DNA of 61,582 nt, counting the filler. It is 5 parts of 5 records of this genome, joined end to end, with 100 filler letters (N's around TTAATTAATTAA, not from the genome) between each part and the next. Parts side by side here need not be neighbours in the genome. Positions count along the whole stretch, not along the records: positions 33,863 to 50,480 come from SRR31156797_44924; 4 more parts are not named here. One strand, written 5' to 3'. Position 1 is the first letter of the stretch, and each line of letters starts with the position of its first letter. Of the stretch, positions 13,650 to 50,580 are shown piece by piece. The translations under genes were made by a program, and so were the position numbers. The notes beneath the pieces were generated by a model. That model saw nothing but the letters and a program-made list of their open reading frames with translations, made no database searches and had not been told where the DNA came from.

Positions 13650-13749
13650 NNNNNNNNNNNNNNNNNNNNNNNNNNNNNNNNNNNNNNNNNNNNTTAATTA
13701 ATTAANNNNNNNNNNNNNNNNNNNNNNNNNNNNNNNNNNNNNNNNNNNN
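13650..13749. other. Artificial contig linker
   Basis: N-run + TTAATTAATTAA (stops in all six frames) + N-run; base composition changes across it. Confidence 0.98.
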
Positions 13750-28053: not shown

Positions 28054-28153
28054 NNNNNNNNNNNNNNNNNNNNNNNNNNNNNNNNNNNNNNNNNNNNTTA
28101 ATTAATTAANNNNNNNNNNNNNNNNNNNNNNNNNNNNNNNNNNNNNNNNNNNN
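28054..28153. other. Artificial contig linker
   Basis: N-run + TTAATTAATTAA + N-run. Confidence 0.98.
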
Positions 28154-33762: not shown

Positions 33763-33862
33763 NNNNNNNNNNNNNNNNNNNNNNNNNNNNNNNNNNNNNN
33801 NNNNNNTTAATTAATTAANNNNNNNNNNNNNNNNNNNNNNNNNNNNNNNNNNNNNNNNNNNN
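33763..33862. other. Artificial contig linker
   Basis: N-run + TTAATTAATTAA + N-run. Confidence 0.98.
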
Positions 33863-35032
33863 AACGTCACCGCCGCCGATGATGACCACGTGACCGGAAA
33901 GTGTATCGAACCCTCCCAGGGCCACCTCTTTCAGGAGTTGCACCCCTGGAATCACCCCTTCCAGCGCCTCGCCGGGAATGCCCAGGGCCATGCCCCTGTG
34001 GCAGCCGATGGCAAGATAGACGGCCCCGTATCCTTCAGCCTCCAGGGAGTCCAGGGTGAAATCCGTGCCCAGGGCCGTGTTGTAGCGTATCTCGACCCCG
34101 AGAGCGCCGGTGATATGGGCCACCTCTTTTTCAAGGACGGCCGGGGGCAGCCGGTAATCCGGGATCCCCACCTTGAGCATGCCCCCCGCCCCAGGAAGGG
34201 CCTCGAAAACAGTGACCCCGACCCCGGCCCTGGCCAGAAAGGCCGCGGCGGTAAGCCCTGCGGGACCGGCTCCCACAATGGCCACCCGTTCCTCCCTCGG
34301 GGTGATTTCCGGGGCCTCAAGATCGTTCATATCCACCTGATCCGCAATGAAACGCTTCAGGGCGCAGATGGAGACCGGAGATTCCACAAGTTCCCTTCTG
34401 CAGGCCGTTTCGCAGGGATGGGGACAGATCCGGCCGATGCTGCCGGGCAACGGCAGGTTACGGAGGATCACCTCCAGGGCCTGCCGGTACTTTTTCTCTC
34501 CGGCAAGGGCCACATAGGCGTGGGCGTTCACACTGTTGGGACAGGCGTTGGTACAGGGGGAACGATCCTTTTTGGTGATGGCAAACGCCCCGGGCACGGC
34601 CTGGGCATAGGGCTTATACGTGGCGTGTCTGTCGCCAAGGCCCTGCTCGAAGGCACTTGGCAGGGAGACCGGACAGGCCTCGGCACACTCTCCGCAGCCG
34701 GTGCATTTCGCCGGATCAATGAATCGCGGGCTCTTTTCCAGGGTAATTTCAAACTTTCCCGCCTCCCCGGATATTTTGCGGATATGCGAAAGGGTGTGCA
34801 GTTCTATGTTCACATGCCGGCCAACCTCCACAAGCTTGGGCGACATGATGCACATGGAACAATCGTTGGTGGGGAAAGTCTTATCCAGTTGGGACATGGC
34901 TCCGCCGATGGAGGGGCTTTTCTCCACAAGGTGAACATAATACCCCGAATCCGCAAGATCCAGCGCCGCCTGGATGCCGGCGATGCCGCCGCCCGCCACC
35001 AGAACGGAGCCAATGGTGTTGTTGTCAGCCAT
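33863..35032 (-). CDS. hdrA: Heterodisulfide reductase subunit A-like flavoprotein with inserted GltD-like domain (HdrL type), 3'-truncated
   Basis: GGGIAG, QLDKTFPTNDCSMC, CTGCGECAEACP, then PCTNACP, GRICPHPCETACRR, GAGPAG and GIPDYRLP. Confidence 0.88.
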
Positions 35033-35595
35033 TTATTCCTTCTCCTTTGACATAAAAACCTCCCCATGCCGAATTGAAAGAATCACTTCAACCCGCACGC
35101 AGGGAGGCGCAAGGGAATACGGCCGACCAATTATCAGTTCATCAGCATACCGCTATTCCCCGGCTGGTTTGCGCCTGCCGTACACGGGCAGGACGAATCA
35201 TACATTGTCAGTATCTTCCGGGGAAAAACGGCATTTAAAAGCTCCGTAGATTTTGATAACAGTATTGCAAATACCCGAACCGTTCAGGGATGATCCTTGA
35301 TATCAATAATGGAACAGGGGTTCAAATCGTTATTATCTATTTTGCCATCACTTGACATTGAATACATGAATGAAAGGTCAGGACAAAACAGACCCCCGGC
35401 AAAGCGCCGGAGGCCAAAATCAAGCGGTTTGACATGGGACATAAATCAGAGTCCGGATCTTTTTATGTTTGACAAAGACACAGGGGATATCATTTAATGG
35501 ACCGAATTCAAGCCCCGGACGTTTACAAAGAAAAAAATCCGAAAGAACCCTGTGAACCGGCCCCCCCCCGGTCTTCCACAGTAAAGGAGCGCCAT

Positions 35596-36045
35596 ATGAA
35601 AGAATGGCTACTCGAGGCCCTTGTGTGCCCGGACTGTCTGCCCGGGGAACATCCCCTGAAGCTGGAAGAGCGGGGGGAATGCCATGGAGACGACATTCTG
35701 GAAGCGAAACTGGCCTGTCCCGAATGCGGCCAAAGCCACCCCATTTCCGAAGGCGTCGCCCGGGTGCTTCCCCGTGCTTCCCGCCCAATTCCCATGACGT
35801 CCGGCGGATACGATTCCCTGGAGATGCTATCCTCCTACCTGTGGAGCCATTTCTGCGATCTGATGGGAGATTCCCTGGCCACGGATGCCTACCGGATCTG
35901 GTCCTCCCATTTCAGGCCTTCGGCCGGGGCGGCCCTGGACATCGGGCGCTCGGTGGGACGGATCTCCCTGGAACTTACCCGGACCCACGGGCGGGTGGTG
36001 GGCGTGGACACATCCCGGACCTTCATCCAGGCGGCCCGGACCCGG
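35596..36045 (+). pseudogene. Truncated Trm112-like zinc-ribbon / SAM-dependent methyltransferase
   Basis: AAGGAG RBS; LVCPDC..LACPEC..PISEGV, then ALDIGRSVGR and VVGVDTS; homology ends abruptly at about 36045. Confidence 0.7.
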
Positions 36046-36750
36046 AAGCCCCGGCCGGGCGGGTGCTCTGTCCCATGGCCCAAAGCGTCAAGGAGATCGT
36101 GTATGCGGAAACCCGCCTGAAACAGCCCCTGAAACGAACGGGTCCCAAGGGCACCTTTGAATTCGAGCCCATCTCCTGGGACCGGGCCCTGAATCTCATG
36201 GCCCACAGGCTGAACGCCCTGAAGGAGGCCCACGGCCCTGAAACCGTGGGATTCTACGCGGGCACCGGCACCTATGAGCGGTCCTTCAAGGACATGTATC
36301 AGGTCAAGGGATCGGAGATCTACCTGGCCTCATACATTCTCTTCCCCTTCGGCGTCGGCGCCCCCTGCTACACCTCCCTGGGCGTGCTGGCCCCCAAGCT
36401 GACCATGGGATGCCTGCACATCGACATGTTCTCCGATGTGGACAACGCCGAACTCATTCTGGTGTGGGGCACGTCCCAATGCCGACATCCTGGCCGGACT
36501 TGCCCAACGGCTGGGCTACGGTCACCTTTATCCCCAAAGCCAGGAGGAGCGAGTCAACCGGGTCTTGGCGGCATCGGGAATCAGCCGGGAGGAACTCATG
36601 GCGGCGGACCGCCAACGTCAACCGGGTCACCGATTTCGGTCAGTTCGACCCCATCTCGGGATTTCCCACCTACAAGACCCTCATGTGCCAGGTAAAAAAG
36701 AAACGAAAAAAAAGAAGAGGCATTGCGGTTCAGGACCCCCGCCCCGGATG
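36036..36750 (+). pseudogene. Molybdopterin oxidoreductase remnant in three fragments and frames
   Basis: LCPM..RLKQPLKRTGPKG..ISWD and AELILVWG in one frame; ARPNADILAGLAQRLG in a second; NVNRVTD..FDPISGFPTYK (C-terminal motif) in a third. Confidence 0.75.
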
Positions 36751-36870
36751 CCGCCTGAATGCCCCCCCCAGAACAAGAAATCCGACCATGGTAAACGATG
36801 ATGCCGCACCCAATGCAGCCCCGAAAATTCCGCTTGCAAATGAAACCAATACACCCGTAATACTCAACAT
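36730..36870 (-). pseudogene. N-terminal fragment of a membrane protein
   Basis: AAGGAGG RBS plus ATG; MLSITGVLVSFASGIFGAALGAASSFTMVGFLVLGG, then immediately runs into the opposing remnant. Confidence 0.5.
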
Positions 36871-37065
36871 ACGCCTCCTTGTTAGTTTGAATAAAAAAGA
36901 ATCGCAACCAGACTGTTGCTGAAACGAATTATTTTCGAGGCTTATACTTGCATGATCCGGGCATGTCAACCGGCAGCGACGACAGCACGCAACCATCCGG
37001 ATTGCAATAGTTGATGAAGCCGTTCTACTACCATTTTTCAATTGAGAATGTCCATATTTTAAATT

Positions 37066-38076
37066 TCAAAACCGTCCCGGTATCTGGGTGCCGCATTGGG
37101 GGCACCGGCCGTGTTCGATCCTGTTTTCAACGATACTGAAAACAAACCGTTCGATCAGCAGCGTCCGGCAGTTGTGGCAGTAGGTGTTCTCCAGCTTATG
37201 GCCGGGAACATTGCCAAGGTAGACATAGAGCAGCCCTTGATCCTTACCGATCTGCCAGGCCTCCTCAAGAAGGGAGACGGATGTTCCAGGGAGATGGCTG
37301 AGTTTGTGATGGGGATAAAACCGTGTCACATGCCACGGGGTTTCAGGTCCGAGACATTCTTTGATCCAGGATGCGATCCCGTGAAGCTCTTCCCTGCCGT
37401 CATTGAATCCCGGAATGATATTGGTCACCACCTCCACATGAATGCCGCAGTTCCTTGCCTTTTCAGAAGTCTCTAAGATTCCTTCGACCCCTTCCACATG
37501 GCCGATCCGCCGGTATGTTTCAGGGATGAACCCCTTGATATCCACCCTGTAGAGATCGAGAAAAGGCGATATCATATTGAACGCTTCCATGGAGATATAC
37601 CCGTTGGTCACATAATTGGTATAAAGTCCCCGGTCCTTTGCGAGCTTTGCGGTATCCAGGGTATATTCGAACCAGACGGCGGGCTCATTGAATGTCCAGG
37701 AGATGCCGGTGCAGCCGGCTGCCTTTGCCCTGGAGACAAGGTCTTCCGGGGACACGTATTCCCCATGCATATCGCCCTCCTTCCAGTGGGCGATATCCCA
37801 ATTCTGGCATCCCGGGCAGCGGAAGTTGCAGCCGAGACTGCCGGCGGAGTACCACAGGGAACCGGGGAAAAAGTGATATACGGGTTTTTTCTCGGCGGGA
37901 TTCACCGATACGGACGACACCCGCCCATAGATGAGGCTGAAAAGTTTTCCGCCTTTATTGATCCGGGTGCAGCACCAACCCTTCTCCCCCTCCGGGATGA
38001 CGCATCTTCTCCGGCAGGTCAGGCAGATCACCTTTTCCCGGTCAACGGTTTCGTACAGGTATGACTCTTTTTCCAT
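37066..38076 (-). CDS. amrS: AmmeMemoRadiSam-system radical SAM enzyme
   Basis: CLTCRRRC..G.C..R, NPAEKKPVYHFFPG, GCNFRCPGCQNWDI, TFNEP, PWHVTRFYP, YVYLGNVPG, C-terminal CxxC pairs. Confidence 0.9.
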   Translation of the reverse strand: MEKESYLYETVDREKVICLTCRRRCVIPEGEKGWCCTRINKGGKLFSLIYGRVSSVSVNPAEKKPVYHFFPGSLWYSAGSLGCNFRCPGCQNWDIAHWKEGDMHGEYVSPEDLVSRAKAAGCTGISWTFNEPAVWFEYTLDTAKLAKDRGLYTNYVTNGYISMEAFNMISPFLDLYRVDIKGFIPETYRRIGHVEGVEGILETSEKARNCGIHVEVVTNIIPGFNDGREELHGIASWIKECLGPETPWHVTRFYPHHKLSHLPGTSVSLLEEAWQIGKDQGLLYVYLGNVPGHKLENTYCHNCRTLLIERFVFSIVENRIEHGRCPQCGTQIPGRF

Positions 38077-38781
38077 CTACACCTTACCCGCGCCGTACTC
38101 ACCCCTCAAAGAGACATAGAGAACCTGGCAGATCACCTCCCTTTTGATCTGCTTCCCTCTTTTTTCAAGCAAAACAAGGTTCTGGACGCCGCTTTCAACA
38201 ACGGGCGCGATCAGCCTTCCCCCGGGAGCGAGCTGGTCGATCAGCGGTTGCGGTATCCAGGCGCAGGCCGCTGTCACACTGATTCTGTCATAGGGCGAAA
38301 GTTCAGGGTAACCATCCCCTCCGTCTCCCAGAACAAGGACAATATCATCGTACCCTGCCACTTGGAGATTCTCCCTTGCGAACGCAAAGGTGACAGGATC
38401 GATATCCATGGAGACCACCCGCCCCCCGGAGCCGACGACCTCCCTGGCAATGGCGGCGCCATAGCCCGAACCGAGACCGACCTCCAGGAACCGGTGGCCC
38501 TCGTCAAGCCCCAGGGGTTCATAAAAAAGGGGATAACTGTGGGGGCATGAGATGGTTGCCATTTTTCCGGGAAGGGGCAGGGGCACCTCTTTGTAGGCAT
38601 AGTCCCTGAAAAGACTGGGAATGAAGTTTTCCCTTGGGACCTTCTCCATGGCCTGCCTGATACGTTCAGAGACAAGATATCCCCTATCGGTAAGTTCCCT
38701 CAGCTTCTTCGCCCGCTCTTTCATGAATTGATCCCTGAGTTTCACCGGCGACCTGGGGGGTGGTATGATCCAGCCTTGCAT
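38077..38781 (-). CDS. pcm: Protein-L-isoaspartate O-methyltransferase
   Basis: VPRENF, AY, TISCPH, LEVGLGSGY, GDG..G, PYDRI.VTAA, QLAPGGRLIAPV; start could alternatively be 38724. Confidence 0.88.
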   Translation of the reverse strand: MQGWIIPPPRSPVKLRDQFMKERAKKLRELTDRGYLVSERIRQAMEKVPRENFIPSLFRDYAYKEVPLPLPGKMATISCPHSYPLFYEPLGLDEGHRFLEVGLGSGYGAAIAREVVGSGGRVVSMDIDPVTFAFARENLQVAGYDDIVLVLGDGGDGYPELSPYDRISVTAACAWIPQPLIDQLAPGGRLIAPVVESGVQNLVLLEKRGKQIKREVICQVLYVSLRGEYGAGKV

Positions 38782-38921
38782 TTTTACGACCTTTCCGGAT
38801 TTTCTTTATCGAAAGGTGGTGATCCAAGCTCCGGCAGGGAGCGGGGACCCTTATTTCCCTATGATATCAAATTCTTTCTCAATGTGCTACACTCTTAAAA
38901 CAGCAAAGGGATGTATATGCC

Positions 38922-39662
38922 ATGAACAGAAAGAAATATGATCCCGTCACGAAAGCCATGGAAGTGGAAAGAATCGTCTGCAGGGGAGACGAGAGAAAGT
39001 ACTATCGCTTCCGGTCTGCCCGGTTTTACGGCGGTATCGCCACCGCCGACTGTGTGGGGTGTTGTCTTCGCTGCCGCTTCTGCTGGTCCTTCAGGGAAGT
39101 GTGCGCCCCCGGACAGACCGGCCAGTATTATTCCCCCGGGCAGGTGGCTGACAAACTCACCGGCATCGCCCTGAAAAAGGGGTATCGCCGGGTGAGAATC
39201 AGTGGAAACGAACCCACCATCGGAAGCGACCACCTGATCAAAGTGATTGGGGGGATCCCGCAAAACATGCTCTTTATCCTTGAAACCAACGGCATTCTGA
39301 TCGGCCATGACCCCACCCTGGCAAATGAGCTGGGCCGGTTTGAAAATCTCCATGTCCGGGTGGGGCTCAAGGGGTGCGACGGGGATGAGTTTTCCCGGCT
39401 CACCGGCGCCCTGCCCCGGGGGTTCGACCTGCAGATTCAAGGGCTGGAAAACCTTCTATCCGCGGGTGTCAGTTTCCATCCCGCTGTCATGCTCAGCTTT
39501 TCGACCCTGGAAGCGTTCCGCGGGCTTCAGAAAAAACTGACCGCCATCAGCCGTCAGTTCAAAGAGATCGAGCCGGAGGAAGTGGCCCTGTACCGTGACG
39601 TGGAAAAGCGCATAAAGAATTTGCCCATTTCTTCCTGGGAGTGGGTCAATGGAGAGTTTTAA
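38922..39662 (+). CDS. Radical SAM protein (uncharacterised)
   Basis: RFYGGIATAD, CCLRCRFC (CxxxCxxC), RISGNEP and LETNG. Confidence 0.88.
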   Translation: MNRKKYDPVTKAMEVERIVCRGDERKYYRFRSARFYGGIATADCVGCCLRCRFCWSFREVCAPGQTGQYYSPGQVADKLTGIALKKGYRRVRISGNEPTIGSDHLIKVIGGIPQNMLFILETNGILIGHDPTLANELGRFENLHVRVGLKGCDGDEFSRLTGALPRGFDLQIQGLENLLSAGVSFHPAVMLSFSTLEAFRGLQKKLTAISRQFKEIEPEEVALYRDVEKRIKNLPISSWEWVNGEF

Positions 39663-39969
39663 CGTTACCTCCGAGGGGTCGCAAAACATCCCGGCCCATC
39701 AAAGACAGAATCTTTTTGTATTGACGTGAAAAGCCGGATATATTATCTCTATTAAATATTCCGACTTTAAAACAGGGCAACCGAACAGCGCCCGGACCGC
39801 GTCACGTATTATTGAAACGCACCATACTATTTTTGGACTGATACGTACCGTTAATATGGCAGCCAGCCCGGCGGCACCTTGTAGATTATGGCATGTATCA
39901 CTTCCGAGCTCCTAACCTGTTACCTGAACCAGCGTGTCAGGTACACCCACGGATAAAGTCGACGACAGC

Positions 39970-42900
39970 ATGGAAAAATACTATACAGGATTTGATATCG
40001 GTACGGATTGTGTGCATGCGGTTGTGATGAACAGCGCATGTGAAATTATCTCTTCACCCAACTCCCTGATGCACTTCGGGAACCCGGCGGATGCGCTGAA
40101 GGAGGTTTACGATGACATCATCGAACAATACGGGTTCGAAAATATCATCACCACCGCCTTCACCGGAAGCGGCGGCGAATACTTCGCAAACATTCTGGGC
40201 GTTCCCTTTTTCCATGACACCATCACCATTCCCGCGGGTATCGGCATCATCGCTCCGGACGCCGACTATATCTTCCATATCGGGGCCAGGGATCCATACT
40301 TTTTCGAACGGGAACAATTCGTAAGGCAGGGAGAGGCCAAATCATTCGTATCGGACCATGCCACGGGCACCAAGTGCGGGGGCGGCAGCGGCATCCTGAT
40401 CACCCGGCAATGCCGGCGCTTCTTTGAAAGTGATTTCCCCGTCAAACTGGGCTCAAACAAACAAACCAACCGTGCCCTCCTTCAGGAACAGCTCCGGAAG
40501 ATCTTCCAAAAAACAGGGGATACGATCAGCGCATCCACCAGGGAAATCGATGTTGGCGGCCGGTGCGGGGTGGTGATCCAGTCGGACATGATTCATCTCC
40601 AGAACCGGGGAGAGGAGATCAGCAACATATTATGCGGGCTCTTTGAAAGAATCATCAAAAATTACGCATCGGACGTCCTCAGGACCCGGCGTTTCGATGA
40701 CAGGAAAAAGGCGGTTGTATCAGGGGGAGTGTTTGAGAACGCCCATCTGGTAAAAATGCTTGAAAAGAAACTGGCAATGGAGATTACGGTCCCCAGGGAT
40801 TTCAAAAAGTCCGGGGCCGTAGGTGCCGTTGTCAAGGCCCGGAATCAAACCGGAAAATTCAACAGCGAAGATCTGCTCTCCATTGCCCGGGCGGAAAAAG
40901 CCACCATCAAAACCACCTCCCCCCTGAACCTGGGACTGGAACATGTCCGCATCTACCATGAGCCAAAGCCCGTTGCCAGGCACGGGGACCTGATCCTCTA
41001 CAACATGGATGACCGGGAGAAGAGAGCGGTTATCCTGGGCATTGACGGGGGCTCGACCACCACAAAAGCCATTGTTGCGGATGCTTCCAGCCTGGACATG
41101 ATCGCTGAGATCTGCCTTTATACCAACGGAAAACCCCTTCAGACGGTCCTTGATATCTTCCGCCAGCTCCGGGAGTGCACAGGCGGCCGCCTCACCATCA
41201 GGGCGGTGGCATATACGGGATCATCCGGCGCCTTCTATCACAAGCTCTTCACCGATGCGTCTCGAAACCCGGAGACCAGAGCCATAGACCTTGTGAAAGA
41301 CGAGATCACCTGCCATGCATTGGGAGTCAAGCATTTCAACCACAAGGTGGATACGATTTTCGAGCTTGGCGGCCAGGATGCCAAGTTTACCCTGTTCAAC
41401 GGGGACGGCACCGTCAAGAAGTCGAAAATGAACCTGAGCTGCATGGCGGGAACAGGCCAGACCATGCAGAACATGATCGAGATGATCGGACTGGATATCG
41501 GCACGTCATTTCATGAGTATGCCCTCAAGGCAAAAAAGACCCCCCTGGTGGACGACACCTGCGGCGTCTTTACGGAAGCGGGGATCGCCCGGCTCATCGC
41601 CCTGGGCTTTCCCAAGGAGGAGATCGCCGCCGCCATTGCCTACGGATTCATGGGGGGATACGTGAACAAGTTTATCGGCAACGAGACCTTCGGAGCGTTT
41701 GCATCCGCCCAGGGCGGCCCCTTCAACGGCAAGGCCTGCCTTGCGGCCCTGGCCCTGCACACGGGCATGGAGGTGCATGCCTTCCCCCACAGGCAGCTCT
41801 TCGGCGCCCAGGGCGCCGTTCTTGCCGCCTTCAATGAAATCAGGGAATGCGAAAAACAGGGTATCCCCTTTGAATCCAAGTTCCGGGGACTGGATCTTGC
41901 CGATGCACGGTTCACCAAAACCGAAAGAAGCTGCAGCACCGTCATCCCGGACTCCTGCACCCTGAAAGACTGCAAACTTGAAGTGTACAAAATCGATGAA
42001 GACTATATCTATTCGGGGGGCGCCTGCCCCAAGGGCAATACGGACACCTGCACCCGAAAGGCCCCTGATTACGTCTCCCGGTACAAAAAAAGGTTGAAGA
42101 AACACCTGGACAGATATACCGTCGACCTGGACAACGAACCCCATAACCAACGGGTCCTGATCCCCAGGAGCCTGACATTCCTCAATGAAAAGGGGGTGTT
42201 TTATACCGCCCTGTATCACTATCTTGGGTTTGATGTGGCTGTCTCCCCGGAATCCGATGACGCCATCGTTGATCTTGGCGTTCACTATTCACACTCTGAG
42301 ACCTGCTTTCCCGTCAAGCTTGCCCACGGCCACGCCGCATTCCTGAAAAAGTATCTGCGGCCGGGCCGGGACAAGATACTGCTGGTGAACGCCATCGGGT
42401 CCGGCTCGAGACAAAAGCGGTTCTGCCCCTATGTCGCGGGGGGCGGGTTCCTTGCCAAGGGTGCCGTTGGGATTGAGAACCGGGACGCCCTGCTTCCGGT
42501 CTTCTATTTCGACGATCCGGCCCACTGCTTTGAAAAAGCCATTTTAAGCGACCTGACACGGGCTTACGGCAGCCGGTTCACCCTTAATGATGTAAACCGC
42601 GCCGTAAAAAAGGCCCAGAAAGCCCAGGAAACCTTCCTGGCCGAGATTTACCAGCTGGGAGATAAAATAGTACGGGGCCTGACGAAAAAGGGAGAACAAA
42701 TTTTCATCGGCATCGGAAGGGGGTACACCCTCCTGGATAACAAGGCCAGCTCTTCCATTCACGACCTGTTTGCGTCATACGGTCTCCACTTTATTCCTTC
42801 GTTTTTTATCCGGCCGCCCGACCACGACATCAACGATATTGCGGAAAACATGTACTGGGTCCAGGGAGAGAGGATCATTCGCGACACCCTTGAATCCGCC

Positions 42901-44412
42901 CTGAGATTCAACTGCTTCCCGGTCAGGGCGACCAACTTCAACTGCGGCACGGATTCCATCCTCCTCTACCATGAGGAGTATATTATGAATACCGCGGAAA
43001 AACCCCACCTGGTGCTGCAGACCGACGGGCACTCGAGCAATGCCCAGTTCGGAACACGGACCCTTGCCAATTATGAGGTCGTCAAAAAACACAAACCCAG
43101 GATGCTGCGCATTGACGCGTTCAGAAAGCCACGCCCGCAACTGATCCTGAAAGATAAACTCATCGGCATCCCCTATATGGGAGACAACGCCCATATCCTC
43201 TCGGCCACTTTCAAAGCCATCGGGCTCAAATCCGAGGTGATGCCCACAAGAACAAAAGCCGCCCGGGAGATCGCCAGGAAAATCGTGGGAACAAACACCT
43301 GCGTCCCCTTTTCCTACCAGGTGGGCGACAGCATTGCCTGGCTGCACTCCCTCGAGGAGAGAGGCTTCGACCCCAAAAAGGATGCGGTGATTTTTCAGCC
43401 CATGGCCCAGGGCCCCTGCCGGTTCGGCCAGTACCATGTTCTTTTGAAACAGATTTACAGGGAAAACGGCCTGGGATCGGTGGATCTCTTCAGTCCCGAC
43501 GCCGACCGGGACTACACGAACGTTCCCATAACCGACACTGAAATCGTGCTACAGGCCATGGCCCTTTTCAAGGGCATCTGCTGCCAGGATATCCTGGGAA
43601 ACGCCCTTTTAAGGACCCGCCCCTATGAGAAAGAGAAGGGGGCCGCCCAGGAAATGTACGAACGTCTCACCGCCAGGCTCTATGAAATGATCGGAAGAAA
43701 CGCCAGGACAAAAGAGATCGTTCCGTTCATGACCGAGGCAAAGGATAAATTCGAGGCCCTCCTCGATCCCGGAATCAAACGAAAACCCATTGTGGTCGTA
43801 AACGGTGAAATTTTTGTGCGCCTCCATGAAAAAGCCAACCAGCACTCCATTCTTCTCCTGGAGAAATACGGCCTTGAAACCAAGCTGGCCCCCATTGGCC
43901 AGTGGATAGAGTATACAAACAAAACCGCCATCCGGGAGTTCAAACGCAGCGGTGACTGGAAAAAATATTTCTTTGCCCGCCTGAAAAAAAACTACATGCG
44001 GAACCGAGGAGAAAAACTCTACGCCCCCTTCCGGCAATACCTGGAAGGACGGAAGTGCCACGAGTCGGACCATATCATCAGCTACATCCAGAACGCCCTT
44101 GTCTATGACAAACATATCCAGGGGGAATCCCCCATATCCATTGGTGAAGCCTACATGTTCACCAAGGGAGAGATGCCGGAAGTCAGCGGCATTTACCATG
44201 TGGGACCCTTCGGCTGCATGCAGGAAACCGCCGCCACCTCCCAGATCCAGTCCATCACCCAGCAGCACAGGGAGAGCGCCGTCACCATCCATGACCGGAT
44301 CATTCCCTTCATGGATGCTGTTTTCGGAGACTCGGAACTGCCCAACCTGGAAGCGGAAATCGCCGTATTTGCGGAAAAATGCTACCTGAAACAGGAACTC
44401 AACAATAAATAA
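39970..44412 (+). CDS. Multidomain CoA-substrate enzyme activase (two BadF/BcrAD-type ASKHA ATPase domains plus DUF2229-like C-terminal region)
   Basis: GFDIG, FTGSG, TKCGGGSG; GIDGGSTTTK, ELGGQDAK, SCMAGTG, CGVFT; ETCFPVKLAHGH, NFNCGTD, GPCRFGQY, PFGCM. Confidence 0.88.
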   Translation: MEKYYTGFDIGTDCVHAVVMNSACEIISSPNSLMHFGNPADALKEVYDDIIEQYGFENIITTAFTGSGGEYFANILGVPFFHDTITIPAGIGIIAPDADYIFHIGARDPYFFEREQFVRQGEAKSFVSDHATGTKCGGGSGILITRQCRRFFESDFPVKLGSNKQTNRALLQEQLRKIFQKTGDTISASTREIDVGGRCGVVIQSDMIHLQNRGEEISNILCGLFERIIKNYASDVLRTRRFDDRKKAVVSGGVFENAHLVKMLEKKLAMEITVPRDFKKSGAVGAVVKARNQTGKFNSEDLLSIARAEKATIKTTSPLNLGLEHVRIYHEPKPVARHGDLILYNMDDREKRAVILGIDGGSTTTKAIVADASSLDMIAEICLYTNGKPLQTVLDIFRQLRECTGGRLTIRAVAYTGSSGAFYHKLFTDASRNPETRAIDLVKDEITCHALGVKHFNHKVDTIFELGGQDAKFTLFNGDGTVKKSKMNLSCMAGTGQTMQNMIEMIGLDIGTSFHEYALKAKKTPLVDDTCGVFTEAGIARLIALGFPKEEIAAAIAYGFMGGYVNKFIGNETFGAFASAQGGPFNGKACLAALALHTGMEVHAFPHRQLFGAQGAVLAAFNEIRECEKQGIPFESKFRGLDLADARFTKTERSCSTVIPDSCTLKDCKLEVYKIDEDYIYSGGACPKGNTDTCTRKAPDYVSRYKKRLKKHLDRYTVDLDNEPHNQRVLIPRSLTFLNEKGVFYTALYHYLGFDVAVSPESDDAIVDLGVHYSHSETCFPVKLAHGHAAFLKKYLRPGRDKILLVNAIGSGSRQKRFCPYVAGGGFLAKGAVGIENRDALLPVFYFDDPAHCFEKAILSDLTRAYGSRFTLNDVNRAVKKAQKAQETFLAEIYQLGDKIVRGLTKKGEQIFIGIGRGYTLLDNKASSSIHDLFASYGLHFIPSFFIRPPDHDINDIAENMYWVQGERIIRDTLESALRFNCFPVRATNFNCGTDSILLYHEEYIMNTAEKPHLVLQTDGHSSNAQFGTRTLANYEVVKKHKPRMLRIDAFRKPRPQLILKDKLIGIPYMGDNAHILSATFKAIGLKSEVMPTRTKAAREIARKIVGTNTCVPFSYQVGDSIAWLHSLEERGFDPKKDAVIFQPMAQGPCRFGQYHVLLKQIYRENGLGSVDLFSPDADRDYTNVPITDTEIVLQAMALFKGICCQDILGNALLRTRPYEKEKGAAQEMYERLTARLYEMIGRNARTKEIVPFMTEAKDKFEALLDPGIKRKPIVVVNGEIFVRLHEKANQHSILLLEKYGLETKLAPIGQWIEYTNKTAIREFKRSGDWKKYFFARLKKNYMRNRGEKLYAPFRQYLEGRKCHESDHIISYIQNALVYDKHIQGESPISIGEAYMFTKGEMPEVSGIYHVGPFGCMQETAATSQIQSITQQHRESAVTIHDRIIPFMDAVFGDSELPNLEAEIAVFAEKCYLKQELNNK

Positions 44413-44506
44413 GGTTCATGTCGCCTCCCTGTTTTTGGATTTTCAGGACGTATCAGGATGACCGCATCACGCCGGGCGCCCCTGGTCCCTTCTGCGAGCT
44501 TTTAAA

Positions 44507-45256
44507 TCACAGATAGAGCAACCCGTGATCCATAGCCTTGGCAACGGCTTGCTGCGAATTGACCGCATCAAGTTTGCAAAGGATATTCCGGGTGTGGAAC
44601 TCAACGGTTCGGTTGCTGATTTTCAAGATAATTGAAATATCCCAGGCCGATTTACCCTTTGTAATCCATGACAACACCTCAATTTCCCTGGGCGTCAGCC
44701 TGGGGCAGGGTTCATTTTCTGTAAAGTGAATTCGCCGAATGGCTTGGCAGAGATGAGGCAACATATGATTGAGCATTTTTTCTGACCGAGAGGAATATTT
44801 CATTGTTTTACCGGCGATTGAAATTACCGCACACTCGGAGGTTCTTTTACCCCGGCTGGTAAAAATCCAGCCGCCATTCAAACCAAATGTCGACGCTTCA
44901 TCCAAAACGATTCGCGATGCATCACTTCCGTATTTTTTCTCTGCATCTTTCCAGTTGGAAAGGCCGTCGTTGTAGAACCCGTAAAGGGCCACACTATCAT
45001 TCAGGACATATCCTTTTGAATTATATCGTTCTTCCCATTCTTCGGGAAAAGAAACGATCATCTTCACCGCTTCCATTTTCTGGGAAAACATAAGAGATTT
45101 ATCCAGATAGGCACATCGCACATGATCATAACCGACCAAGGCGTTCAACTGGCTGAGAAGTGTGAGATAATCCTCTTTTTTTTGACAGCACAAGGCATCA
45201 TGTATCAAGTCCAGTGCACCATTCGCATCACGCTTTGACAATTCTCTCCTATCCAT
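44507..45256 (-). CDS. LuxR-family regulator with autoinducer-binding domain (no adjacent luxI seen)
   Basis: FPEEW..RY....Y...D, NW, FGL..G and HTH LTPREIEVLSWITKGKSAWDIS; ATG 45256 has a GGAG RBS (alternative TTG at 45268). Confidence 0.9.
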   Translation of the reverse strand: MDRRELSKRDANGALDLIHDALCCQKKEDYLTLLSQLNALVGYDHVRCAYLDKSLMFSQKMEAVKMIVSFPEEWEERYNSKGYVLNDSVALYGFYNDGLSNWKDAEKKYGSDASRIVLDEASTFGLNGGWIFTSRGKRTSECAVISIAGKTMKYSSRSEKMLNHMLPHLCQAIRRIHFTENEPCPRLTPREIEVLSWITKGKSAWDISIILKISNRTVEFHTRNILCKLDAVNSQQAVAKAMDHGLLYL

Positions 45257-45490
45257 CAACAGCTCCAATCAGCCGAACAAAATGTGAGTTAAGAGATCCA
45301 GAACCACTTGAGACTTAATGAAACGACAGCTATCAACACATGAATGCAACTTACATAAAACTAAAAAAACAAAAGTTCAAGTGTTTTTTCCGTCCAAGGA
45401 TGGCATTTAACCAGCACATTTCACACCCCCCATGCATGCCGCTAAGGTTCAATATAATTACAGACTTTTACAGACAAAAATAAAGCTCCT

Positions 45491-45537
45491 ACCTAGTGAA
45501 TTCACCAGTTTTCAAAAATTATCATATCAATTATAAA
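45491..45537 (+). promoter_or_regulatory. lux-box-like operator and putative -10 element
   Basis: 20-bp ACCTAGTGAATTCACCAGTT: 8 of 10 palindromic pairs, fits NNCT-N12-AGNN; TATAAA at 45532-45537 at class II activator spacing. Confidence 0.55.
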
Positions 45538-45958
45538 CAGTTCTTGTTGAGAAAAACGCGATGATAGGGTTCTTTGATCGCATATTCAAGCGCCACCCAT
45601 CGTGACTGAATCGCCTATGCATATGCAGCATGTTGTTTATAAACCACCAATGGCCGGCTGGAACCGGTCGAAGATTCAGTCCTGCGTTTTACCCTGATAG
45701 GAAGAATGGATATGCGCCGGGCAAACCAGGTCCATCTCTGAACGGTCATTTTTTTGTCTTTCATGCAGCCCTGGATGGTCACCGCTTTTTTCTCCCTTGT
45801 GAACCGCCGGCAGATTTTTCATCTGCTTTCCCTTGCTGCGGAAGTACGGAAAGGATGCGCCGATACGGTCTATTGGGGCGGCGGAACTGATCAAAATTGT
45901 TTATAAGCCATGAAAGGACCAAACAAATTTTTATTTTTAACATAACACAGGGTGAACA

Positions 45959-47464
45959 ATGACAGACCTGCCCCTATGGAAAAATCGGTCGGGCGCCTGG
46001 GTTCAGGATGATGAAAAAAAACGATTTTTCATGCAGGCTTACAATGGGGGCCGGCCGGTCTCTGACGGATCAGGATCAGAGGTCCTCCTGGGCGCCAAAT
46101 GGCACCGGACCAGCAATCAGACAGTCAAATGCGGAGGATTGTTTCCGCCGGACTTCAGATTCTGCCCCTTTTGCGGGGAAAAATTATCGGGGCTGGAAAA
46201 CAGGAAAGACAAATGGTGCCCGCCGTTTGGCGGAACAAATGGCCTCCGCTTATTGTCCTCCCCAGTTGACGCCGGCGCCCTGGGGAAAATCCAACGGGAC
46301 GGGTCCGCCATTGCACAGGAAAAAAACAGTCTTTCAATGCCCCGCCCGGGAGACCATGAGTTCATTGTTGCAAATTCGGGAAACAACCGGTCAATATTGA
46401 TCGCCTTTGATAAAAACAAAGGCCTGGTAGACTACTTCAGCCCGGCAGCCCGCAGGTGGATCCCACTGCCCCTGAAAAAAGGGGAGAAACCGGTTGCCTC
46501 CAGCCGGCTCCCCGCATGGAGCTGGGCCGCCGCATTTGCTGAGGAAAAAAGGGTCTCAGGGTTCGGCGTCCCCACCGATAAAGGGCCTGTGTGGGTTGCC
46601 ATTGACTGGGAGAAACAGAATGTCAGGCAGGTGTCCGGCCCGGACCGAGCCATCGGCGGGGCCGCCGGATTCAGCAACCGGATTTTTATTCCCGTATTAG
46701 CCGACAAGGGCGTCTCCATCACCGAATTCAACCCAGCCGGTATGACCTGGCAAGAAGCCGCCCATGTATCCGTTCCCCCGGAAGCAGGCATTTTCTCCGT
46801 TCCCGTGGTAGATGAGGACCGGCAAACCGTTTACTGGATCAGTGGGCACGGCATGCTCATCTTTGAGGCGGCGGGCGGCACATGCCGATGGCGGCCCTGG
46901 AAAAAGGACTCCGATGACTGCAGGGCCGTACCGGAATTTGGTCCGCCATTCAGGGACTCCCTGGGGGATTTCTGGCAAATCTGCTATGATGAACCGGAAG
47001 ACGCCTTCAGGTATTTCAAGCTGAACGGGGACGAGGCCGATTATGAATATGCCGACGGCGGCCGGTTTACATCGGGCATCTCCTGTTTCAGCAAACCCTA
47101 TGACCATTGGGACAAGCCTTGGACAACGGTGGATGAAATGCTGGAGGAGCGGGCAGGCGCCATCCGGTTCCCCCTGCTATGTCTTGATGAGGCCGAAAAA
47201 CTGACCCTGATTGCCAGCTTTGGATCTACCGCCAGCCCCCCGCTTCTGAAACTCATCCGGGATACCCATACCCCTTTTACTGTGGACTTTTTCATTGAAG
47301 GCCCGGATCAGCTTCCCATCCCCCTGGAAACCCGGGAATCCCTCAACATTTATTCGCCCTGGGAACTCAGGGTGTTTGTCTACGATAATTACTTATACCT
47401 GTATTTAAACGAAAGCGCTCAATGCTGCAGATGGAGGTTACGTCATGACCCTTCGAGGTCCTAA
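45959..47464 (+). CDS. Hypothetical protein, N-terminal zinc-ribbon-like motif and beta-rich body
   Basis: 501-aa ORF; KC...FCPFCG; many W/F/Y-rich short strands; overlaps the next gene. Confidence 0.75.
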   Translation: MTDLPLWKNRSGAWVQDDEKKRFFMQAYNGGRPVSDGSGSEVLLGAKWHRTSNQTVKCGGLFPPDFRFCPFCGEKLSGLENRKDKWCPPFGGTNGLRLLSSPVDAGALGKIQRDGSAIAQEKNSLSMPRPGDHEFIVANSGNNRSILIAFDKNKGLVDYFSPAARRWIPLPLKKGEKPVASSRLPAWSWAAAFAEEKRVSGFGVPTDKGPVWVAIDWEKQNVRQVSGPDRAIGGAAGFSNRIFIPVLADKGVSITEFNPAGMTWQEAAHVSVPPEAGIFSVPVVDEDRQTVYWISGHGMLIFEAAGGTCRWRPWKKDSDDCRAVPEFGPPFRDSLGDFWQICYDEPEDAFRYFKLNGDEADYEYADGGRFTSGISCFSKPYDHWDKPWTTVDEMLEERAGAIRFPLLCLDEAEKLTLIASFGSTASPPLLKLIRDTHTPFTVDFFIEGPDQLPIPLETRESLNIYSPWELRVFVYDNYLYLYLNESAQCCRWRLRHDPSRS

Positions 47465-48947
47465 CCCCGGGCGGACGATCATGAACCTGGCTTTCGGGTT
47501 GGCATTGATTTTCTCTCCTTCAGCCGCCTTTGCCGCCCCCCAGCCGATTCTCAATGTCTATCTGGTACAGAACTCCGGATGGATGGAACCCTTTTACACG
47601 GACAAAAACGCCAAGTTCAAACCATTGATCGCCGGAGTCGTTGAACGGACCAGTCCCCCAAACGGCGAGGTTGTCTTGGCAGCCTTCAACCAGCGCATCA
47701 AGGACAACCCCTCCCCTGCCCTGGCCTACCGTGGAAAGGACAGGGCCTTGATGCTGGCTGCCCTTGAAACGATTGTCCCTGCCAAAAAACCGGGCAGTAC
47801 GGCATTTGCCGATACGGACTTCAAAGAAGCGGTCACCAGCTCCATCAACCAGTACTCCCCTGGCCGTCCCTGTATTCTCTGGATATTTACCAACAACAAA
47901 AACAGCCCGGACAATGATCCCAAAACCGCAGCCAAGAACAAGGAATTTTACAGCTGGCTCAGGAATGAAGAAAACATTCGGCGAATCATGGCCTATCCCT
48001 TGTCCATGCCCGTAAAAGGCAGGCATTACCAGGCGAACGGCTTGATGATCTATGCCATGGCCCATGGGGAACCGGCCGACCGGGTGCTGTATAAAATCGC
48101 CGAAGCCCGTCTTCCGTTTGGGGAACGGGCGGCCAGATTAAAGCCCCTGGATTCAGAAGCCGTGACATTCATTCCCACTGCCGCCGGCGGCCAGGATAAT
48201 GTGACAGCCGCCATGGGAAAAGACGGGAACACCTTGGTTCTTCAATTTAAATCCTCTGGAAAACCGGAAATCGCCACCATCAATGGCCACTTTATCAACG
48301 ATTTTTTTCCCTATGATATCCGAACGGCAAAGGTCTCCCTTACCGTCAAATTCAAAGGAGGCGACCACGGAATCCGATCCCTGCTCAGCCCGGACACCAT
48401 TGAATCCGTTGCACCGGGCAACCAGACCCGACCCGTGACCGTAAAAATAGGAATCCCCCCCCTGCCCAGCATATGGAAGAATCCGGGAATCATTTTCAAA
48501 AGCGGATACCAGGAGCCGGCCGTCATGGAATTTGCCCTTGCCCGCCAGGAACTCCACCTTTCGGCCGATTTTCTGAACAAGCTGAATGCCCTGTTCCCCG
48601 ATGACCCCCTGCCGGCTATCTTTCTTCCCGACCGCTCCGCTAACCGGTCCTTGACCCTGAAACCCCTGTTGATCGATGTTGCATATCCGGCATGGCCCCT
48701 GATACTGCTCGGAGGGCCTGCCCTGGCCTTCCTGGTGGGCGGCCTCTGGCTGCTCGCTGCAACAACCCGTAAGAAAAAATTCACCATTTCCGTGGACGGA
48801 ACCCAGAAAACCTATCATCTCAAGGCCTTTGGCCAAGCCACCCTGTATTCGGAAACAGGGGAGTCCATGGGCAGTATCAGGCGGGGCCTTGGAAAACCCG
48901 CACTGCATCTGGATGAAAACCGGGACGAACAGGTCCGTCTTTTGTAA
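47445..48947 (+). CDS. Exported, membrane-anchored vWA-like protein with degenerate MIDAS
   Basis: Signal peptide (..SAAFA); YLVQNSGWM, DTDF and LWIFTNN at MIDAS-equivalent positions; C-terminal TM followed by RKKK; GGAGGT RBS. Confidence 0.7.
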   Translation: MTLRGPNPGRTIMNLAFGLALIFSPSAAFAAPQPILNVYLVQNSGWMEPFYTDKNAKFKPLIAGVVERTSPPNGEVVLAAFNQRIKDNPSPALAYRGKDRALMLAALETIVPAKKPGSTAFADTDFKEAVTSSINQYSPGRPCILWIFTNNKNSPDNDPKTAAKNKEFYSWLRNEENIRRIMAYPLSMPVKGRHYQANGLMIYAMAHGEPADRVLYKIAEARLPFGERAARLKPLDSEAVTFIPTAAGGQDNVTAAMGKDGNTLVLQFKSSGKPEIATINGHFINDFFPYDIRTAKVSLTVKFKGGDHGIRSLLSPDTIESVAPGNQTRPVTVKIGIPPLPSIWKNPGIIFKSGYQEPAVMEFALARQELHLSADFLNKLNALFPDDPLPAIFLPDRSANRSLTLKPLLIDVAYPAWPLILLGGPALAFLVGGLWLLAATTRKKKFTISVDGTQKTYHLKAFGQATLYSETGESMGSIRRGLGKPALHLDENRDEQVRLL

Positions 48948-48975
48948 CCCTATTTTCCATTATAAGGAGGCATGA

Positions 48976-49371
48976 ATGTCCGACCAGAACCAGGAACTGA
49001 CCGAGATTGAGAAAATCTTTGGCACCGCCACCACGGTTATTCCAAAAGAATCTGCCCTTCCGACCGCTCCCGACCTGAAACCCAAAGAAATGGCCATGGC
49101 CGGCGGGACCCTGCTGGTGGCTGCCATTCTCTTTGCGGTCATCAAAAACTTTATGTCAAAAATGCTGGTGGCCAAATGCAAAACATCTCCCCGGGCCGCA
49201 GACATGGCCGGCTGGGCCCTGTTTTTCCTGATGCTGCTGTCGGCCTTTGCCACGGCCCTGGGAATTCTGGATTCAACCAAGCTGTTTGCCCTTCCCTACC
49301 TCGTGCCCATCTGCATTGCCATGATGGGCGCCATGCTCATGCTGATGATGGCCCTTTTGTCCAAACAATAG
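48976..49371 (+). CDS. Small 3-TM membrane protein
   Basis: Three hydrophobic segments; TAAGGAGG RBS. Confidence 0.75.
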   Translation: MSDQNQELTEIEKIFGTATTVIPKESALPTAPDLKPKEMAMAGGTLLVAAILFAVIKNFMSKMLVAKCKTSPRAADMAGWALFFLMLLSAFATALGILDSTKLFALPYLVPICIAMMGAMLMLMMALLSKQ

Positions 49372-49399
49372 TCCACAAACAGCTTAGGAGAAAAAGATC

Positions 49400-50479
49400 A
49401 TGCCGGACCCCATAGACACCCTGGAAAACGATCCCACCAACGACACCCTTCAAAAGATATGGCCAACCCTGTTCATTGCTGTCGGCGGCACAGGCATGGA
49501 AATCGCCCTCCGGGTAAGGCGCCGCCTGCTCAACTATGTCTGGGGCAGCACCGACCACCCCGTGCGCATCGGCAGCCTCAATGAATTCCCCCTGGCCCAG
49601 TTTATCCACTTTGACCTGGACGCAGGCACCAATGCCGAGGACGGCCAGGCTGCCGCCACGGACCTGCTCAGCGAGGAAGTCAAGTTCAGCGATGACGAAC
49701 GACTGATTTTCCCCCTGGATCTTTTCAAATACAGTAAAACCGACGGGGAGCTGAACCGGTATCCCCTGATCGCGGACTGGTTTCCCCTGACCAAAAAGAA
49801 ACTGGACGAACTCAAAATCGACCCCTCAAAGGGCGCCGGCCAAATCCGTTCATTGTCCCGGCTCTATTTTTTCGATAAAGCCAATGATTTGAAAACCATG
49901 GTTGAGGGCAAAATCAAAGCCCTGCTGGCCGGCATCCCCCAGCAGGACCGAACCCGGCGCCTGGGCCTGGATCTCCAACCGGCCAGCCTCAGAATAGTGG
50001 TCATTGCCTCCACCGCCGGGGGTACCGGGGCAGGTTCATTTCTGGACATGGGCTATCTGACAAAGTGGCTGGCCCGGCAGCAGCTCACCGGGGCAAAGGT
50101 GGACCTGGCCCTCATGCTTCCCTCGGGCTATTCCGGAAGGGGGAAATCCCGTACCGAAGCCAACACCTATGCCGCCCTGATGGAACTGGAAGCCTGTACC
50201 GGCCACGGCCTGAAGTTTATCAGAACCTGGGCGGACAATATGGATCCGGAGCTCCAGAATAAGCCCTATGACGAGGTATTCCTCTTTGATACCGGCAACC
50301 TGGCCCTGAGGAAAACCACCCAGGCCCCCCATGTGTTTGACATGGTGGCCGATATCCTGTTTGAAGATTTTACCTCGGCCGAATTCGCAAACCGGAAACG
50401 GTCCATTGCCGTCAACCAGAGCCAGTATAAAATCGACGCCTTTTCCCTTCCCATGGACCGAACAAAATACGGATCCATG
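49400..50479 (+). CDS. Tubulin/FtsZ-like GTPase domain protein (Tubulin_2-type), 3'-truncated
   Basis: FIAVGGTG (T1), KGAGQIR (T3), STAGGTGAG (T4 signature), ANTYAALMEL. Confidence 0.85.
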
Positions 50480-50480
50480 A

Positions 50481-50580
50481 NNNNNNNNNNNNNNNNNNNN
50501 NNNNNNNNNNNNNNNNNNNNNNNNTTAATTAATTAANNNNNNNNNNNNNNNNNNNNNNNNNNNNNNNNNNNNNNNNNNNN
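50481..50580. other. Artificial contig linker
   Basis: N-run + TTAATTAATTAA + N-run. Confidence 0.98.

Follow-up and report, generated by a model that had tools for sequence, protein, structure and literature searches.

A conserved FtsZl1-vWA cassette with a predicted beta-propeller partner and a vWA-fold membrane protein of non-canonical metal site

What kind of system is encoded where a gene for a tubulin-like protein follows three genes for predicted beta-rich and membrane proteins, next to a divergent gene for a LuxR-type regulator, and does that regulator belong to it? The question is raised by positions 44507 to 50480 of a 61,582-nt stretch of joined DNA (the window hereafter), for which the original prediction, made from the letters alone, had proposed a quorum-sensing-linked system of a tubulin-like GTPase, an exported von Willebrand factor A (vWA)-like protein and further membrane components. 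The answer reached here is that this region holds the first four genes, A to D, of a conserved, co-directional cassette of the FtsZl1-vWA kind; the cassette is real and widely conserved, and its kind was predicted by computer in 2010. For the window itself, the practical outcome corrects that prediction: the tie to quorum sensing is at best a local one, and systems of this kind have been described before. The features in question are the following (ORF, open reading frame).

44507-45268, minus strand: LuxR gene, 253 aa (ORF call)
45269-45958: divergent intergenic region, 690 nt, AT-rich
45959-47464, plus strand: gene A, 501 aa (ORF call)
47445-48947, plus strand: gene B, 500 aa (ORF call)
48976-49371, plus strand: gene C, 131 aa (ORF call)
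49400-50480, plus strand: gene D, 360 codons, then Ns

The four genes are tightly spaced, with an overlap of 20 nt between A and B and gaps of 28 nt each between B and C and between C and D. An alternative ATG of B at 47481 would give the protein a classical signal peptide and leave a gap of 16 nt after A. The contig that carries the cassette spans 33863-50480 and its end cuts gene D, which runs for 360 codons into the linker. Both the row of four co-directional genes and the contig end inside the tubulin-like gene had been called correctly in the original prediction.

Conservation of the cassette

Related loci number 124, 44 of them collected via D from species genomes and 80 via B from metagenomes. 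The loci found via D (47-56% identity; their titles name Methylococcaceae, Thiodictyon, Acinetobacter and Janthinobacterium) have A upstream in 42 cases and B in 43, with order and strand preserved, and the misses fall on a degraded locus (L009) and on a contig of only 3.9 kb (L018). Among the loci found via B, A was present in 71 and D in 69; many of those that lack a match to A or D are short or end near the match, and the misses were not individually checked. When ORFs were clustered, A, B and D proved to be colinear and adjacent in every one of the 69 loci that had all three, and a C-family ORF stood between B and D in 81 of the 124. These cluster counts are lower bounds, because opposite-strand shadow ORFs were picked in some GC-rich loci. 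The four genes thus form a conserved unit, as had been supposed.

How firmly is the cassette held within a genus? In the genus of locus L013 (titled Janthinobacterium), 54 of 58 species genomes carry a single copy of B; of the four in which it was missed, three measure 2.7-4.1 Mb and may be incomplete. Flanking gene families recur among the Janthinobacterium-titled loci. Single-copy presence on this scale, together with the recurring flanks, fits a maintained cellular function.

The tubulin-like protein D

In tubulin and FtsZ, the T1 nucleotide loop reads G-G-x-G and the T4 loop bears the signature (A/S/G)GGTG(S/A/T)G. Both are recognizable in D: among 24 aligned sequences G29, G30, T31 and G32 of its T1 loop (VGGTGME) are invariant, as are G207, G208, G210 and G212 of its T4 loop (TAGGTGAGS), with A206 and T209 kept in at least 90%. 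The Pfam profile Tubulin_2 (PF13809) matches residues 24-347 over profile positions 1-317 of 356 (E 4.2e-45; 155 bits, cut-off 27). In Pfam, the FtsZl1 family goes by the name Tubulin_2 (PMC9871819). Judged by its sequence, D is the N-terminal 360 residues of an FtsZl1/Tubulin_2 protein, in agreement with the tubulin/FtsZ signature first noticed in it.

Full-length relatives of D have 1212-1281 aa, and those that share 66-73% identity with it 1229-1281 aa. All five relatives that were scanned begin with Tubulin_2 and four of them end in a GYF_2 domain, the place of which is taken by a double zinc ribbon in the relative from L045. FtsZ_C and Tubulin_C were absent from these relatives, and the roughly 800 residues between head and GYF gave no Pfam match. 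None of the four contigs joined to this one in the window holds the remainder of D, nor the genes E and F, which follow D in many relatives (see below). A phmmer search with the full-length relative from L001 against solved structures returned only its GYF tail and weak FAK matches, and nothing for the head. The tail matched PDB 7z3c, entitled ‘Adventurous gliding motility protein X’ (E 1.5e-6), a chain that we take to be GltJ.

The vWA-fold membrane protein B

B is linked to the vWA superfamily by fold much more clearly than by profile. Pfam VWA (PF00092) stays below its threshold (E 0.073, 13.7 bits vs a cut-off of 23.8), and a precomputed match to PF00092 is present in 2 of the 120 listed clusters of B homologues. 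An AlphaFold model computed with 38 homologues (predicted local distance difference test, pLDDT, 87.0; predicted template-modelling score, pTM, 0.74) was compared by VIA-align with 48,161 chains, and nearly all of the 50 listed matches were of vWA type, covering residues ~31-230 (Z 7.7-9.8, about 140 aligned residues, root-mean-square deviation 3-4 Å). A Foldseek search with the whole model had been swamped by Ig-like domains, the vWA fold surfacing only in this Foldseek-independent search; what Foldseek did find, the Ig-like MSP and PapD folds, corresponds to residues ~230-415 and points to two Ig-like beta-sandwich domains. Hydrophobic segments lie at residues 12-30 and 416-434 according to hydropathy, and a membrane helix at 417-441 precedes a conserved, beta-rich cytoplasmic tail of 55 aa. 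Taken together, B is predicted, largely from its model, to be a type I membrane protein composed of a signal peptide, a periplasmic vWA domain, two Ig-like domains, a helix and a cytoplasmic tail, which bears out the earlier description of an exported vWA-like protein with a C-terminal anchor.

What has become of the metal ion-dependent adhesion site (MIDAS) in this protein? Across 38 aligned sequences Q42, N43, S44, G45 and W46 are invariant, and so are D123, T124, T149, N150 and N151. The place of the DxSxS motif is occupied by Q42-N43-S44-G45-W46 and that of TDG by T149-N150-N151, as mapped by motif position and by the secondary structure of the model, with no superposition. Another pocket, strictly conserved, hence appears, as far as the model can tell, to have taken the place of the metal site. 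Because this MIDAS is non-canonical, the usual metal-dependent ligand binding of vWA proteins perhaps does not apply to B. A profile search of 1.84 billion proteins gathered 269 clusters at 50% identity, 99 of them with E <1e-30, so that on sequence grounds the B family seems small and well apart from ordinary vWA proteins. The named near relatives among the matches listed come from a Desulfobacterales metagenome-assembled genome (MAG; 45% identity), a Chlorobiaceae MAG and Chlorobaculum parvum.

Proteins A and C

A has no Pfam or NCBIfam family, and a hydropathy scan detected no hydrophobic segment in it. Its AlphaFold model is all beta (pLDDT 84.9, pTM 0.86), and Foldseek placed it among generic propellers (BamB, WD40, Kelch) with TM-scores of at most 0.55. 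Its N-terminal region contains H49, C58, C69 and C72, a plausible His/Cys3 zinc knuckle, and a weak Pfam match to a double zinc ribbon (DZR, E 0.03). A is accordingly predicted, from the model above all, to be a cytoplasmic beta-propeller protein with an N-terminal zinc knuckle. In the family alignment the knuckle ligands are kept only in the clade of the window and are gone in gamma- and betaproteobacterial relatives; the motif W-x-P-P-F-G (residues 86-91) is invariant or nearly so family-wide. A search of the ESM Atlas with A produced unnamed or weak leads only, the best scoring 0.88, below the level of evidence.

Two side observations concern A. Residues 53-78 (46115-46192) resemble the N-terminal zinc ribbon of E at L013:13653-14840, with 42% identity over 26 residues and an E value of 0.003 in a small search; to go by this short similarity, A and E may share a common docking module. 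Moreover, P0154, a single protein of 989 aa on a 19.9-kb contig, is A-like in its first half (E 1e-20) and B-like in its second (E 9e-50 by phmmer, 6e-88 by profile). A natural fusion of A and B would account for it, and so would an artefact of a frameshift or of gene calling. A search for longer fused forms of B yielded this one A-B fusion and no B-D fusion, an absence that is weak evidence.

C, of 131 aa, shows three hydrophobic segments in hydropathy (residues 37-55, 74-92 and 102-120), which correspond to three membrane helices, as the original prediction had it, and is predicted to be a membrane protein with a cytoplasmic N-terminus. It has no Pfam match, and NCBIfam offered nothing for any of A to D.

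Downstream genes and flanks

In most betaproteobacterial and gammaproteobacterial loci D is followed by E and F, which makes for a six-gene cassette in most relatives. Of the 75 loci that have any ORF downstream of D, 54 have an E-type gene (E or E2) as the first one, and F is within the first three in 49. E is made up of a zinc ribbon and a proline-rich linker together with a single membrane helix and a periplasmic part that is helical and TPR-like. F, whose signal sequence is of the lipoprotein type, contains a glycine zipper as well as a beta-rich domain. An OmpA-domain gene was detected by homology in 2 of the 124 loci.

The clade closest to the window, to which L045-L053 belong, is 49-61% identical in B and 47-73% in D, and its downstream part is variable. 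In L045, L049, L063 and L068 (the last two look alike) a second, diverged Tubulin_2 paralogue comes directly after D (L045:15713-18235; L049:9129-11432), L047 has a PEGA-TPR protein and F downstream, and L053 a protein of no assigned family and then TerC. A tandem Tubulin_2 paralogue of this sort could also explain why the assembly breaks inside D.

Genes upstream of the cassette vary from lineage to lineage. Some loci of the closest clade have TPR, caspase (Peptidase_C14), Xre-type helix-turn-helix and CHAP genes upstream of A (L045:3372-7575). At L001:13673-19766, titled as a Methylococcaceae MAG, the cassette is followed by a Ter-type cluster of three TerD genes, three genes for TerY-like vWA proteins (one with TerY_C) and a PP2C phosphatase gene, and TerD or TerC also flank the cassette in L004, L005, L044 and L053. 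Neither association was retained as a general feature: Ter genes were seen in 5 of the 124 loci only, three of them titled Thiodictyon, and a caspase-family gene in 3.

Comparison with known systems

Is such a cassette new? The FtsZl1 family was defined by Makarova and Koonin (2010, Biol Direct 5:33; PMC2875224), according to whom most FtsZl1 genes reside in operons with vWA genes, frequent companions being a diverged GTPase, kinases, OmpA-like proteins and membrane proteins specific to a lineage. In the same paper FtsZl1, vWA and membrane proteins together were proposed to act as a membrane-remodelling machine. The window-type cassette shares with these operons the strong PF13809 match and the T1 and T4 motifs of D, the location of D in one operon with the gene of a vWA-fold membrane protein and with those of further membrane proteins, and a length of about 1200 aa in the relatives of D; in both cases knowledge comes from prediction alone. 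It differs from them in its vWA partner, a separate small family with a sub-threshold Pfam VWA match and Q-N-S-G-W / T / N in place of the MIDAS, whereas the majority of the vWA proteins associated with FtsZl1 have an intact MIDAS (PMC2875224). It also differs in its other partners, namely the propeller A, the three-helix C, the zinc-ribbon membrane protein E and the lipoprotein F, and in the absence of GTPase and kinase partners (A-D of the window and the scanned E and F), which are not universal in PMC2875224 either. With the uncharacterised partner families B1-B9 of that paper left aside, the subtype is thus set apart by its propeller partner, its invariant MIDAS-less vWA protein, its E and F partners and its lack of a GTPase or kinase, with OmpA rare. 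A trace of it was nonetheless in the 2010 data: Additional file 5 of PMC2875224 lists Cpar_0939 of Chlorobaculum parvum as FtsZl1, in an entry without neighbours. Judged by locus tags, Cpar_0941 lies two genes from it, and it is homologous to B (44% identity), so the subtype was present there and its MIDAS-less vWA partner went unrecognised.

A second body of comparison is provided by Kaur, Burroughs, Iyer and Aravind (2020, eLife 9:e52696; PMC7159879), who describe tubulin and vWA proteins in conflict systems of Firmicutes and Actinobacteria that are centred on GAP1-N2 GTPases. The cassette resembles them in encoding, side by side, an outward-facing vWA membrane protein and a tubulin-superfamily protein whose C-terminal extension is long. 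In contrast to those systems, the six core genes include no GAP1 GTPase and no FNIII-repeat protein, and Pfam detected no P-loop or FNIII domain in the scanned flanks; no shared effector domains were seen, and the window-type lineages are Proteobacteria, Chlorobi and Desulfobacterales-like bacteria. Both papers thereby bear out the statement of the original prediction that predicted systems combine Tubulin_2 proteins with vWA and membrane proteins. Nor does the operon coincide in full with a system already characterised, an outcome that would have spoken against that prediction: the kind is known from predictions only, and the subtype is undescribed in the literature covered.

A third resemblance is one of adaptor logic alone. 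In the Agl-Glt focal-adhesion machinery of Myxococcus, the bacterial GYF domain of GltJ binds a proline-rich sequence of AglZ (Attia et al. 2024, Sci Adv; PMC11135422). As in that pair, so in the cassette a GYF domain, a zinc finger or ribbon, a proline-rich sequence and a membrane anchor would tie a cytoplasmic scaffold to an envelope-spanning complex. The modules are spread differently in the cassette, with GYF on D, the zinc ribbon and proline-rich linker on E and the zinc knuckle on A, and there is no MglA, MglB or Agl motor context.

What is the significance of yet another FtsZl1 arrangement? FtsZl1 is among the most diverged branches of the tubulin/FtsZ superfamily, and the present subtype is compact and strictly colinear, free of the many additional parts found in the versions of Actinobacteria and Firmicutes. 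Culturable soil bacteria are among its carriers, locus titles naming Janthinobacterium and Acinetobacter isolates. Being compact, colinear and found in culturable hosts, it makes a convenient entry point to GTP binding and assembly of FtsZl1 and to its crosstalk with a vWA receptor, and the non-MIDAS pocket of B and its conserved cytoplasmic tail are concrete targets for mutagenesis. A specialist aware of the 2010 paper will not be surprised by the system, yet it is a clean minimal version that would make FtsZl1 function testable.

A proposed trans-envelope complex

Gene order, conservation, domain folds and predicted topology come directly from the analysis. Given the folds, the topologies and the strict colinearity, the best fit is an envelope-spanning complex that couples the periplasmic receptor B to a membrane-tethered assembly of D, a proposal that we hold with slightly less than even confidence. 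The predicted topologies suit the trans-envelope module that had been suggested at the outset: the vWA domain of B in the periplasm, followed by its helix and tail, C in the membrane, and A and D in the cytoplasm.

In such a complex, the vWA-fold and the two Ig-like domains of B would be exposed to the periplasm and offer the invariant Q-N-S-G-W / T / N surface, and a single helix through the inner membrane would lead to a beta domain, small and conserved, on the cytoplasmic side. It is on this tail of B that the propeller A and the tubulin-like D would assemble, with C in the membrane, and the tail together with A and C would position or nucleate D at the inner membrane. D itself, if it resembles its relatives, would be a giant protein with a GTP-binding head and a C-terminal GYF adaptor. 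Since the GYF domain of GltJ binds proline-rich AglZ, the GYF domain of D relatives may likewise bind a proline-rich cytoplasmic stretch, for which the linker of E and the W-x-P-P-F-G motif of A are candidates. Toward the outer membrane the complex would be extended by E and the lipoprotein F, where present. A periplasmic or envelope ligand would, upon binding B, switch the local, membrane-tethered assembly of D, and the output could be remodelling of the envelope or membrane, or a response to envelope stress. All contacts, the use of GTP, the assembly of D, the ligand and the output are inferred; the joining of A-like and B-like halves in P0154 lends weak support to a contact between A and B.

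Several points weigh against this proposal. The A-B fusion rests on one sequence and is a possible frameshift or gene-calling artefact. The MIDAS of B is non-canonical and does not conform to DxSxS. E and F are not in the window, and in the closest clade (L045-L053) other genes or another arrangement take their place; the six-gene model therefore draws in part on more distant relatives. B is patchy in the genus of L006 (titled Acinetobacter), being present in 5 of 151 sampled genomes. The T6-H7 region could not be identified in FtsZl1 and filament formation is regarded as uncertain (PMC2875224), and no bench study of FtsZl1 was found in the literature searched.

It is also conceivable that far more is at work: a six-protein trans-envelope machine in which a metal-independent vWA receptor steers a giant tubulin-like assembly at the inner membrane, the Q-N-S-G-W pocket binds a specific envelope ligand, the propeller and the GYF/proline-rich modules serve as couplers, and the whole is a counterpart of the integrin-to-cytoskeleton link, near-core in some genera and, in this anaerobe, placed by LuxR under a cell-density switch. 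So extended a version is improbable.

Alternative readings

Could the cassette instead serve in conflict? The vWA receptor would then sense an invader or a damage signal, and the tubulin-like NTPase would multimerise as a threshold switch or as an effector. Kaur et al. (2020; PMC7159879) proposed this for systems of tubulin, vWA and GTPase proteins, which provide the analogy, and the idea gains from a caspase-family gene in the flank of L045, L046 and L051 (upstream together with a TPR gene in L045, the sole one mapped), from the Ter genes (TerD, TerC, TerY, PP2C) at five loci and from the patchiness of B in the L006 genus. Such neighbours are nevertheless rare, and the single-copy presence and recurring flanks seen in Janthinobacterium are unlike a fast-turnover defence island. 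Pfam detected no nuclease, protease, pore former or NADase in A-D of the window or in the scanned A-F proteins of relatives, the six core proteins include neither a GAP1-type GTPase nor an FNIII-repeat protein, and none of A-D matched any of the 5027 PADLOC models (PADLOC-DB 2.0) at E <=0.1, the only protein to match being LuxR, whose helix-turn-helix hits CARF-associated models. An anti-phage or conflict role is hence unlikely, and a machine for surface adhesion or motility, analogous to the Agl-Glt focal adhesion, is less likely still. In a machine of the latter type the zinc-ribbon, GYF and proline-rich modules would tie a filament-type cytoplasmic protein to the periplasm or the outer membrane. 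This would agree with the match between the GYF_2 tail of D relatives and PDB 7z3c, with the zinc ribbon, proline-rich linker and membrane helix of E, with the lipoprotein F, and with the fact that vWA and Ig-like ectodomains are typical adhesion modules. However, what the two have in common is limited to small adaptor domains, the vWA domain is predicted to be periplasmic rather than surface-exposed in diderm hosts, and no Agl/Glt motor or other Glt component was seen in the scanned flanks. To our knowledge, the carriers also include organisms not known to glide. Also in favour of this option is that GltJ itself combines a zinc finger, a GYF domain that binds proline-rich AglZ and a membrane anchor (PMC11135422).

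A further possibility concerns control rather than function and could coexist with either functional reading, namely that the cassette is a quorum-sensing target, the divergent LuxR binding an autoinducer and switching the genes on at high density. The regulator, 690 nt from A across the AT-rich region, is by its sequence a genuine member of the autoinducer-binding family, as had been claimed: it contains Autoind_bind (PF03472, E 4e-17) and GerE (PF00196, E 2e-18), the same two-domain architecture as CviR, RhlR and LasR, its best solved relative is CviR (E 6.6e-25), and the Trp/Tyr/Asp residues of the pocket align. This divergent placement and the motifs described in the next section, one of them 48 nt upstream of A, speak for such control. 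On the other hand, tblastn at E 1e-3 detected no LuxR homologue within the examined flanks of any related locus, neither in the 44 found via D nor in the 80 found via B, the closest clade included, where 1.9-8.5 kb upstream of A were examined, and adjacency in a single genome is weak evidence. Unlike in the CviR, RhlR and LasR systems, no autoinducer synthase (luxI) was present among the 9 ORFs scanned with Pfam, out of 20 listed (>=100 aa) that precede 39934 on the same contig; those scanned belong to redox, radical-SAM and methyltransferase families. The intergenic region has no exact CTG-N10-CAG. Quorum sensing as a property of the system, which the original prediction had put forward, is accordingly not supported: LuxR is not a conserved part of the cassette, and the link is local at most. 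LuxR may regulate the operon in the window organism, from outside the system itself, and that the cassette is switched on by cell density is doubtful.

The intergenic region

Lux boxes follow a palindromic consensus of the CTG-N10-CAG type, and box sequences differ between LuxR proteins. The lux-box-like site that had been reported between LuxR and A was the weakest of the claimed elements: there is no exact CTG-N10-CAG in 45269-45958, and a near-palindrome one mismatch away from it is present. The candidate operators are as follows.

45493-45508: 16-nt near-palindrome CTAGTGAATTCACCAG, 7 of 8 pairs, one mismatch from CTG-N10-CAG
45632-45647: second 16-nt near-palindrome, GTTGTTTATAAACCAC
45633-45646 and 45897-45910: direct copies of the 14-nt motif TTGTTTATAAnCCA, 264 nt apart

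Two such near-palindromes were reached in 3.8% of 500 mononucleotide shuffles, a point against quorum-sensing control. At up to two mismatches, TTGTTTATAAnCCA has 5 matches in the window vs 1.2 expected, and none of 100 shuffles reached 5; its second copy in the region is the one that ends 48 nt before the start codon of A. The segment of about 250 nt bracketed by the two copies (45633-45910) seems, by eye, more G+C-rich than the spacer around it; possible explanations are a pair of operator sites or a small insertion that left a scar. Rfam gave no match on 44400-46100 at E <=1, and two small intergenic ORFs (86 and 72 aa) had no Pfam match.

Other features of the window

Directly upstream of the LuxR gene, at 39934-44412 on the plus strand, lies a gene for a fused protein of 1492 aa of the CoA-enzyme-activase type (BcrAD_BadFG ATPase domains and DUF2229). 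Proteins of this type are typical of anaerobes. Linkage of this gene to the cassette was seen in 0 related loci.

The five contigs of the window are joined by linkers of the form N44-TTAATTAATTAA-N44, located as follows.

13650-13749: linker
28054-28153: linker
33763-33862: linker
50481-50580: linker

The G+C content is about 0.55 before the last of these and 0.35-0.46 beyond 50581. Because of this fall, the last contig perhaps derives from another replicon or organism than the contig that carries the cassette.

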